Shown here: positions 110 through 11,339 of the stretch, one piece after another
Layout of the letters: every line of letters begins with the position of its first letter
Numbering within the stretch: position 1 is the first letter of the stretch
Source of the DNA: Candidatus Thorarchaeota archaeon
GTDB taxonomy: Archaea > Asgardarchaeota > Thorarchaeia > Thorarchaeales > Thorarchaeaceae
Assembly: GCA_048882485.1 (NCBI GenBank)
Contig: JBHLRP010000076.1
Coordinates: forward strand, 1-11,339
Reading direction: 5' to 3'
DNA length: 11,339 bases
Position numbers and translations under genes: made by a program
Notes under the pieces: generated by a model
Databases searched by the model: none
Told to the model about the DNA's origin: nothing
The model's input: the letters and a program-made list of their open reading frames with translations, nothing else

Positions 110-1414
110 ATGAAGGTCCCTGGAACTACCATGGACATAAGTCTCAATACTAACAGAATATTCGCTGTTGATCAAGGAGTCATGAAGCGAATCAAATACG
201 CTGGACGGACCTTCATGGAAGTACTCGAAGAGCTTCAAAGATTCGCATATCTAAGGGGATACAACGCTCCAACTACTATACTGAAGTTCATTCTCAAGCG
301 AATTGGCCTTCCTGATGTTGACGTGTTCCCATCTGAAGATGAACTGACGAAAGATGATATCGTTGAACTCTCGAAAGCACTTAATATTGTTGACAGCCTC
401 AAGGATGAATTCCTATCTGCGACGCCACAACCCATAGTGCCTGAGGATCTAATGAATTACACTGTCATAAAACCAAAGCAATCAGACGACTTCACCCTGG
501 AGGGTATAGCTCCAGATGACGCTATGCCTATAGATGTGACTCCTGATGCTCCTATTGAAGCAGAGGCTGCTGCAGAAACTCCCGCGTTTGATAGATCCTC
601 TATCTGGGATGATGTGCCTCAGAGTGAGGAAGCTGTGAAACTAATCTATAATTTCCATTGGGAGAATCTTCCAGTAAATACCCCCACACCCAGAACCAAA
701 TCCTATGAAGAAGAACCCAAGAAACCGAAGTTCATCTGGGATGATGAGGGTGAGTTGGAATCTTTGGAGGATGTCAGGCCAACTGAGGAGCCAGCTCCCG
801 AACTCCTCGGAGACTCCCATGAGCTAAAATCTCTGTTCCTTGGAGAAGCACAAGTAGGTGTGAAAAGCATACTCTTTGAATGCAACCTCAAAGAAGCAGA
901 AGATCTATCCTTTGTCTATCGAGATGTTGTTCAACACGATGAGAACCTTGTCGGGGTAAATGTCTGGACCTTTGAAGGCTCGCAGGCGGCAAGAATCCCG
1001 CGCCAGGAGTTCTTTACTGGTACGGGAATTGCAGTCATAGTGTATTCAGTAGCTGACAGATGGAGCTTCGATAGTCTTGATTTCTGGATTAAAGAACTAA
1101 CCAGTGTCTTCTTGGTTCCGCCTCCGATGATTATCGTAGGCAACAAGACAGACCTCAGAGACCATCCCGTATACGGTGAGGAGGATGAGTTTGAGCCTCC
1201 AGTTACCACAGCAGAGGGCGAAGAGTTCTGCAAGAAAATGGCAAATGAACTGGGTGAAAACGGTGAAGCTCATCCAATAGTGTTCTTGGAAACTTCCAGC
1301 ATTACAGGTGCAGGTATCTCTGACCTACTAAGCACGATGATTGATCTTTGGCTGACAAGTGAGAGACCCAGCATGCCCGCAATTGAATCGCACGTTATAA
1401 AACGCGAAATGTGA
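110..1414 (+). CDS. Multidomain protein: helical N-terminal domain, acidic/Pro-rich linker and C-terminal Rab/Ras-like small GTPase domain with degenerate catalytic motifs (putative pseudoGTPase)
   Basis: The C-terminal part aligns by eye with Rab-family GTPases: ELKSLFLGEAQVGVKS (beta1/G1), VNVWTFEGSQ (G3), FFTGTGIAVIVYSVADRWSFDSLDFWIKEL (cf. YYRGAxGxxxVYDVTxxxSFxxxxxWxxE), IIVGNKTDL (G4) and FLETSSITG (G5). The ORF track starts at TTG 74. In-frame ATG 110, with GGAG at 94-97, is more plausible, and ATG 131 is also possible. Stop codon TGA at 1412-1414. Confidence 0.9.
   Translation: MKVPGTTMDISLNTNRIFAVDQGVMKRIKYAGRTFMEVLEELQRFAYLRGYNAPTTILKFILKRIGLPDVDVFPSEDELTKDDIVELSKALNIVDSLKDEFLSATPQPIVPEDLMNYTVIKPKQSDDFTLEGIAPDDAMPIDVTPDAPIEAEAAAETPAFDRSSIWDDVPQSEEAVKLIYNFHWENLPVNTPTPRTKSYEEEPKKPKFIWDDEGELESLEDVRPTEEPAPELLGDSHELKSLFLGEAQVGVKSILFECNLKEAEDLSFVYRDVVQHDENLVGVNVWTFEGSQAARIPRQEFFTGTGIAVIVYSVADRWSFDSLDFWIKELTSVFLVPPPMIIVGNKTDLRDHPVYGEEDEFEPPVTTAEGEEFCKKMANELGENGEAHPIVFLETSSITGAGISDLLSTMIDLWLTSERPSMPAIESHVIKREM
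821..1354 (+). other. Rab/Ras-like small GTPase domain within the + strand CDS
   Basis: G1-like GEAQVGVKS 842-868, G3-like WTFEGSQ 965-985, G4 NKTD 1142-1153 and G5 ETSS 1289-1300 are in canonical order. There is no C-terminal cysteine prenylation motif; the protein ends HVIKREM. Confidence 0.88.

Positions 1415-11339: not shown

Follow-up and report, generated by a model that had tools for sequence, protein, structure and literature searches.

The DNA analysed here (the window) is an 11,339-nucleotide stretch that forms the whole of contig C76 in a 3.96-Mb Candidatus Thorarchaeota metagenome-assembled genome (MAG; here G000), which is 90.5% complete. Two convergent genes fill the contig: a plus-strand Ras-like gene whose product has lost the catalytic motifs (the pseudoGTPase), and a minus-strand open reading frame (ORF) for a giant surface protein (the giant). 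A gene for a leucine-rich repeat (LRR) protein, off the window's left edge, appears to be the conserved partner of the pseudoGTPase gene, and in most genera it would head an operon that includes another giant carrying the same kind of cytoplasmic tail. The association of this cytosolic LRR/pseudoGTPase pair with tailed giants is conserved and undescribed. On balance we lean towards the pair being an adaptor that serves tailed giants, with the giant in the window a recent arrival beside it. An earlier reading of the sequence alone had described the two genes as convergent, 109 bp apart and from a probable Asgard archaeon; ORFs re-read from the sequence have this gap and orientation, and orthologues 77–96% identical lie on contigs labelled Thorarchaeota.

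Contigs C19 and C76 of G000 share an exact overlap of 77 bp, and both ends are 93–96% identical to a continuous intergenic region in another genome (G005:C8). Across this junction, the LRR gene (C19:176-796) lies ~200 bp upstream of the pseudoGTPase start on the opposite strand, and encodes a cytosolic protein of 207 aa (LRR207; Pfam LRR_8, 3.6e-22) with no hydrophobic segment. Beyond it are giants of 6,555 and 3,994 aa, both tail-bearing and divergent from the pseudoGTPase. Gene neighbourhoods in other genomes were surveyed among GTDB representatives. The head-to-head LRR/pseudoGTPase pair is found at every locus for which upstream DNA is available, in five genera: g1 (three loci: G000, G005, G015), g5 (~13; G063 and others), g28 (one), g25 (one), and g7 (three). 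A giant ORF with laminin G (LamG) modules follows the LRR gene in ~14–16 of 19 loci, representing four genera; where the LRR gene is directly upstream of a giant, the two are on the same strand and 60–170 bp apart. A genomic tie between the pseudoGTPase and giants had been proposed on the strength of the convergent pair, and although that pair fails as support (see below), the broader tie gains support from the LRR linkage on the other side. Separately, two more LRR genes in G000 are situated beside other giants (C1:177656-178786, next to a 1,588-aa ORF; C1:209831-210823, next to a 2,189-aa ORF).

The tail shared by these giants is a modular structure, the order of which is based on 26 aligned tails representing six genera and an AlphaFold2 (AF2) model with a mean predicted local distance difference test score (pLDDT) of 75: the transmembrane (TM) segment runs into a basic helix, followed by a second helix, a four-helix domain, a variable acidic stretch, and either one or four three-helix units (Table 1). 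The four units of the giant in the window are 38–46% identical in pairwise comparisons scored against shuffles, and correspond to AF2 helices at 200–249, 260–309, 320–364, and 381–427. Whole-genome searches recover dozens of tail-matching giant ORFs of 2,200–6,560 aa. The tail is present in 23 of 24 sampled genomes of the family and in the single sister-family genome sampled, and is absent from all 15 sampled genomes of other families in the phylum; among 1.84 billion representative proteins there are 110 matches, always at the extreme C-terminus. The tail family is limited to this archaeal order. G000 encodes ~12 tailed giants, its remaining giants having tails of 0–13 aa. Between G000 and G005, identity is 91–96% in the tail and 81–87% in the ectodomain. 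Because dozens of paralogous giants share the module, it is most likely a common docking platform. For the fold of the tail, Foldseek returned nothing below E 1e-3, and VIA gave Z ≤ 6.8, under the background quoted for helical models. No specific fold was assigned, VIA having matched only generic three-helix bundles (protein A, paramyxovirus XD, KIX); Pex14, UBA, and SAP identities were also considered for the three-helix units and gave no assignment (Pfam SAP/RecX matches were sub-threshold).

For the pseudoGTPase, the ORF is open from position 74 and ends with a stop codon at 1412–1414; the ATG at 110 is taken as the start because the family consensus start reads MQIPGT. Homologues form 123 clusters, nearly all from Thorarchaeota. 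The AF2 model comprises a confident N-terminal domain (N-domain), a disordered acidic linker, and a G domain. The N-domain has no match in Pfam, in a PDB profile search or in the ESM Atlas, and fold searches of the full-length model are dominated by G-domain matches. Its profile is found in 21 of 24 sampled family genomes, in the one sister-family genome, and in none of 15 genomes of other families, which is the same range as that of the tail, and the domain is without detectable relatives beyond this order. Among 74 sequences, D223 of the linker is invariant, with W178, F194/H195/E197/N198, and F220/W222 nearly so.

The G domain has a Ras-superfamily fold, with VIA Z scores of 17.8 to Gem (root-mean-square deviation 3.0, 159 residues aligned), 17.4 to Sec4, and 17.3 to NRAS, and Foldseek values of 1e-10 to RhoA/Rab. 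G1 is degenerate (GEAQVGVKS at 842–868; GE.[GQ]VG[VI][NKS]S across 110 homologues), with the P-loop Lys position occupied by V or I in the 110 homologues and the next residue by N67/K33/S9. G3 is likewise degenerate (WTFEGS at 965–982; W-T-F-[EPQ]-[KQG] in the family), with no Asp and no DxxG. Both G4 (NKTD, 1142–1153; 103–109 of 110 per position) and G5 (ETSS, 1289–1300) are intact, ETS being essentially invariant in the family and E406 and S408 invariant. The ratio of nonsynonymous to synonymous substitution rates (dN/dS) relative to seven orthologues is 0.07–0.11. With the motif loss conserved in 110 homologues and dN/dS at ~0.1, this is a maintained pseudoGTPase and not a decaying gene. 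The protein ends in ...HVIKREM, without the prenylatable Cys of the Rab subfamily; the initial description of a multidomain pseudo-small-GTPase is confirmed. The probable role of the pseudoGTPase is that of a scaffold, nucleotide-insensitive or binding-only, and not that of a switch.

The N-domain also occurs in stand-alone proteins of 164–182 aa (G000:C16:46855-47370, G005:C8:88239-88766, L015:2085-2576). These proteins end in a Trp-acidic motif, FDW[DE]EAP, which suggests a shared short linear motif because it resembles the FIWDD of the pseudoGTPase linker. Their genes are head-to-head with an operon composed of a DUF4332 gene plus giants. The protein at the head of this operon, a DUF4332/helix-hairpin-helix (HhH) protein (G000:C16:47465-48040; G005:C8:87583-88155), carries at its N-terminus a hydrophobic stretch that closes with ...GAFC/GGFC-SS and looks like a lipoprotein signal, which would be odd for a helix-hairpin-helix protein. 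A wider-spread N-domain GTPase paralogue of 531 aa (G000:C41:8587-10179) is likewise atypical, keeping the P-loop Lys (GEAGVGKKS) and lacking DxxG (WSFDEA), and neither an LRR gene nor a giant lies next to it. The syntenic N-domain GTPase in CP070761 also keeps this Lys (GEKGVGKQS), and an apparent fusion of N-domain and linker to an ABC-2 permease in the same sequence (L022, 9848-11674) was discarded as an artefact of a scaffold gap (a run of X). The pseudoGTPase is tandemly duplicated in several g5 genomes (L035, L038, L042, L049), with copies 44–52% identical to the window protein, and G020:C28 has a second pseudoGTPase paralogue near a giant with a four-repeat tail, on a separate contig. 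Homology between the N-domain and the tail repeats, both of which have a [KR].GLP turn, was rejected (hhalign probability 15%).

The convergent pairing of the giant with the pseudoGTPase has a much narrower distribution. It occurs in six genomes (G000, G005, G011, G002, G009, G014), confined to one sub-clade of one genus. A DUF4332/HhH gene follows the pseudoGTPase in place of the giant in G001, G015, and G016, an unrelated 519-aa gene does so in G007, and abhydrolase-like or other genes do so at the g5 and g28 loci. The pseudoGTPase orthologues of G001 and G015 are 84–88% identical to that of the window yet have no convergent giant, and none of the more distant orthologues has one. In a maximum-likelihood tree of the pseudoGTPase, G001 and G015 (support 96/95) are nested in the giant-bearing clade, and G009 and G014 branch outside them; from this placement we infer one gain, and one loss (in G001/G015), of two giants. 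The corresponding minus-strand operon of G005 consists of DUF4332, a 5,505-aa giant, and a 3,991-aa giant, the last being the counterpart of the giant in the window. The latter would have come to lie beside the pseudoGTPase when two giants were recently inserted into the operon headed by DUF4332. As the pair was gained once, lost once, and is absent from other orthologue loci, it is young and dispensable. The sequence-only reading had proposed a check of synteny, in which the linkage of this pair proves not to extend beyond the one sub-clade, and its caveat that the adjacency may be incidental was well placed for the convergent pair. That this particular giant and the pseudoGTPase are neighbours is a recent side effect of island growth.

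Taken together, the window would represent the middle part of a ~63-kb island in which Thorarchaeial giant surface glycoproteins are encoded. LRR207 and the pseudoGTPase would work together as cytosolic adaptors, amounting to an LRR-plus-Roc-like unit split in two, which would assist the placement, assembly, or intracellular tethering of tailed giants. Several observations weigh against this adaptor reading. The three g7 loci keep the LRR/pseudoGTPase pair without an adjoining giant, so the pair can stand alone, and tailed giants occur in genera in which no syntenic pseudoGTPase was found. The tail is nearly ubiquitous in the sampled family genomes, whereas the syntenic pseudoGTPase is found in 27 of 86 genomes and 3 of 16 genera (five genera when its range is drawn with the N-domain profile); because the tail family is far wider, its general function cannot require the pseudoGTPase. 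All of the compared genomes belong to one family, such that the synteny counts are not independent, and the conserved synteny may partly reflect shared ancestry within that family. Furthermore, no mechanism can be read from the folds, because the N-domain and tail profiles match neither each other nor solved proteins.

Some of these observations would also fit an incidental adjacency, in which the LRR protein and pseudoGTPase constitute a self-contained cytosolic module whose role has nothing to do with the giants, and the giants accumulate in a variable island by tandem duplication and insertion. This explanation, which we regard as possible although somewhat unlikely, is consistent with the free-standing g7 pairs, with the breadth of the tail family, and with the single gain and single loss of the convergent pairing within one genus and its absence from other orthologue loci. 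It accounts less readily for the LRR gene being placed directly upstream of a giant at the loci of four genera, for the two separate arrangements that set N-domain proteins head-to-head with giant operons, and for other LRR genes flanking other giants (3 of ~14 LRR loci within 1 kb of a giant vs. ~0.2 expected, a post hoc estimate). One genome that had seemed relevant, G004, with a four-repeat tail and no pseudoGTPase, was set aside as uninformative, because its single contig is a gapped scaffold and not a closed genome.

The adaptor reading can be extended to a more specific proposal, in which the giants are receptors whose tails recruit the LRR protein and a nucleotide-dead Ras-fold scaffold, as a prokaryotic device for coupling the surface to the cytoplasm. 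We consider this extension unlikely; if true, it would describe a coupling device made of the types of parts used in eukaryotic adhesion signalling (single-pass receptor, LRR, small-GTPase fold). More doubtful still is the strict form of the model initially advanced, by which the tail of this particular giant binds the convergent pseudoGTPase (for example, with the repeats gripping the Trp-acidic motifs) for outside-in signalling or cytoskeleton anchoring. The tail is folded, conserved, and repeat-bearing, the nearly invariant linker motifs reappear in the stand-alone N-domain proteins, at their C-terminus, and the pair is kept in six genomes, all of which would suit such binding; set against this are the close orthologues in G001 and G015 that lack this giant, the convergent orientation of genes of which one belongs to a different, DUF4332-headed operon, and the generic nature of the three-helix matches. 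That the giants are cargo of an aloposon-type mobile element, with the pseudoGTPase marking an insertion hotspot, is highly improbable: aloposons have tandem giant genes, those in Thorarchaeota MAGs are reported as distantly related to aloposon giants (PMC8813620, Extended Data Fig. 7), and close relatives differ in whether they have two of the giants, but the tRNA-site integration and upstream ParA/MinD set of aloposon giants (Otus/Ephialtes) were not found, there being no tRNA gene in the fetched parts of G005:C8 or the fetched stretches of G000 C19 and C16, no integrase or ParA/MinD ATPase among five flanking ORFs (an aminotransferase, a Na/Ca exchanger, an HD-domain protein, and two without match), and no PADLOC matches, by which a defence-system reading was also rejected.

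The giant itself is interpreted as a single-pass, heavily N-glycosylated surface protein with a concanavalin A (ConA)-like lectin cassette. At the C-terminus of the protein, a basic helix hugging the membrane would be followed by a four-helix domain, with an acidic leash between that domain and four small three-helix bundles. Its only Pfam matches are DUF2341 (residues 81–129, window 10953–11099, E 4.7e-5) and Laminin_G_3 (residues 185–354, window 10278–10787, E 1.6e-12), and its sole hydrophobic segment (residues 2848–2871) is followed by a tail of 400 aa; these features bear out the description of a giant membrane protein with a lectin-like module, one TM segment, and a large repeat-bearing tail. 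NxS/T sequons number 72 in the ectodomain, against 28.5 ± 4.7 in composition-matched shuffles, and one in the tail; the ectodomain contains 1.2% K and is rich in S/T/N/Y, vs. 17.5% E in the tail. The orthologue in G005:C8 is 3,991 aa in length, with ~720 additional N-terminal residues that include a signal-like hydrophobic segment. That segment, the net charge of +7 in the juxtamembrane region, the division of sequons, and the contrast in composition together place the ectodomain outside and the tail inside the cell. Because the window's giant lacks these ~720 residues, the lectin-like LamG cassette is internal and not N-terminal. The missing 5' part is assembled nowhere in G000, in which a search gave only paralogues of 33–38% identity. 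A conserved N-terminal region of ~550 aa, at the same level of identity and with no Pfam match, is common to giants (residues 1–550 of the 3,991-aa G005 giant vs. G000 C16/C19/C2). Between cassette and membrane, the stalk is long, as the sequence-only reading stated, and its Ig-like nature, which the same reading asserted, is not confirmed: there is no Pfam match at E < 0.01 and no PDB sequence match. In its favour are a weak periodicity of ~98–108 aa and a language-model similarity of 0.91–0.94 to archaeal Big_3_5/MG4 clusters, and an Ig-like stalk is a plausible guess.

With Laminin_G_3, a length of several thousand residues, and a signal-like N-terminus in the G005 orthologue, the giant belongs with the archaeal huge surface proteins dominated by Laminin_G_3, which are described as of unknown function in "The neglected giants" (PMC11573180). 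It does not belong with proteins anchored by PGF-CTERM/archaeosortase, there being no NCBIfam match and a 400-aa tail after the TM segment. Like the huge Laminin_G_3 proteins and the Thorarchaeota tandem giants, the giants here have several thousand residues, a ConA-like domain, and tandem genes; unlike here, the searched parts of PMC11573180 and PMC8813620 mention neither a TM segment plus tail module of 110–400 aa nor a linkage to LRR or pseudoGTPase genes. ROCO proteins (LRR-Roc-COR; LRRK2, Methanosarcina/Chlorobium Roco) similarly associate an LRR with a Ras/Roc-like G domain, and the pseudoGTPase G domain has VIA Z scores of 13.3–13.5 to M. barkeri Roco2 and LRRK2 Roc, with Ras, Rab, and Rho scoring higher. 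However, here the LRR and the G domain are encoded by separate, divergent genes, without COR in Pfam and without a P-loop Lys or DxxG. Canonical Rab/Ras proteins, including a crystallised Thorarchaeota Rab (PMC10933270), share the G fold (Z 17–18), NKxD, and ETS/SAK-type motifs, whereas the pseudoGTPase has degenerate G1 and G3, an N-terminal extension of ~240 aa, and no C-terminal Cys. The resemblance to eukaryotic adhesion receptors (integrin beta, cadherins) lies in layout alone (glycosylated ectodomain, one TM segment, conserved folded tail), the giant's tail having no sequence or fold homology to them.

Full-text literature searches returned no paper on Asgard pseudoGTPases, and none on the tail or the LRR/pseudoGTPase/giant module. 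Asgard LRR proteins are stated to be "of unknown function" (2026 preprint), and cultivated Asgard cells have unidentified surface proteins, proposed for cell–cell contact or substrate adhesion, and crawl while adhered (PMC13716822). Asgard archaea have large small-GTPase and LRR repertoires with unknown roles. The LRR/pseudoGTPase/giant neighbourhood provides a concrete candidate for a connection between surface and cytoplasm. The tail module and the N-domain, both unannotated, are also defined here. Were the linkage incidental, a lineage-specific tail and a conserved pseudoGTPase family would still have been described cleanly.

Table 1. Features of the 11,339-nucleotide window (., no strand).
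Feature	Position	Strand	Basis or remark
Divergent promoter region, AT-rich	1..109	.	Bases 1-77 are the reverse complement of the C19 start
PseudoGTPase gene, 434 aa: N-domain, acidic linker, Ras-fold domain	110..1414	+	Pfam Ras 9e-13, Roc 3.9e-7
Lineage-specific N-domain, four strands and three helices	110..415	+	AF2 pLDDT 85-92
Acidic, mostly disordered linker	416..814	+	pLDDT below 50
Linker Trp-acidic motifs IWDD, FHWEN, FIWDD	602-613, 653-667, 731-745	+	Conservation in 74 sequences
Ras-superfamily G-domain fold	815..1363	+	VIA, Foldseek; motif columns in 110 homologues
C-terminal ERPSMP motif	1361..1378	+	E430-P435: P432 invariant, remainder nearly so
Stop-to-stop spacer, 109 bp	1415..1523	.	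Lies between the convergent stops
Giant surface-protein gene, 3,271 codons present	1524..11339	-	Open at contig end; 5' ~720 codons beyond contig
Four copies of ~50-aa three-helix repeat (L.E.EL..LR..L..RGLP..EI..I..QA..LP..L..ELL)	1530..2225	-	z 10-15
Conserved four-helix cytoplasmic domain (PEIEEL..L.ILT.MTPEELEEFR..SKMK.SEQ..F.REVI.QEA)	2316..2531	-	pLDDT 83-89; invariant columns in 26 tails, six genera
Basic juxtamembrane helix (net charge +7) and next helix	2592..2726	-	Tail alignment, AF2 model
Single transmembrane helix	2727..2798	-	Kyte-Doolittle window maximum 2.17; continuous helix in AF2 model
Ectodomain, sequon-rich, K-poor, S/T/N/Y-rich	2799..11339	-	Pfam, sequon counts

Inside the giant gene, an antisense ORF of 181 aa (window 4752–5297, plus strand) is also open in G005 (L023:10231-10770), which probably follows from the sense gene being 85% identical.

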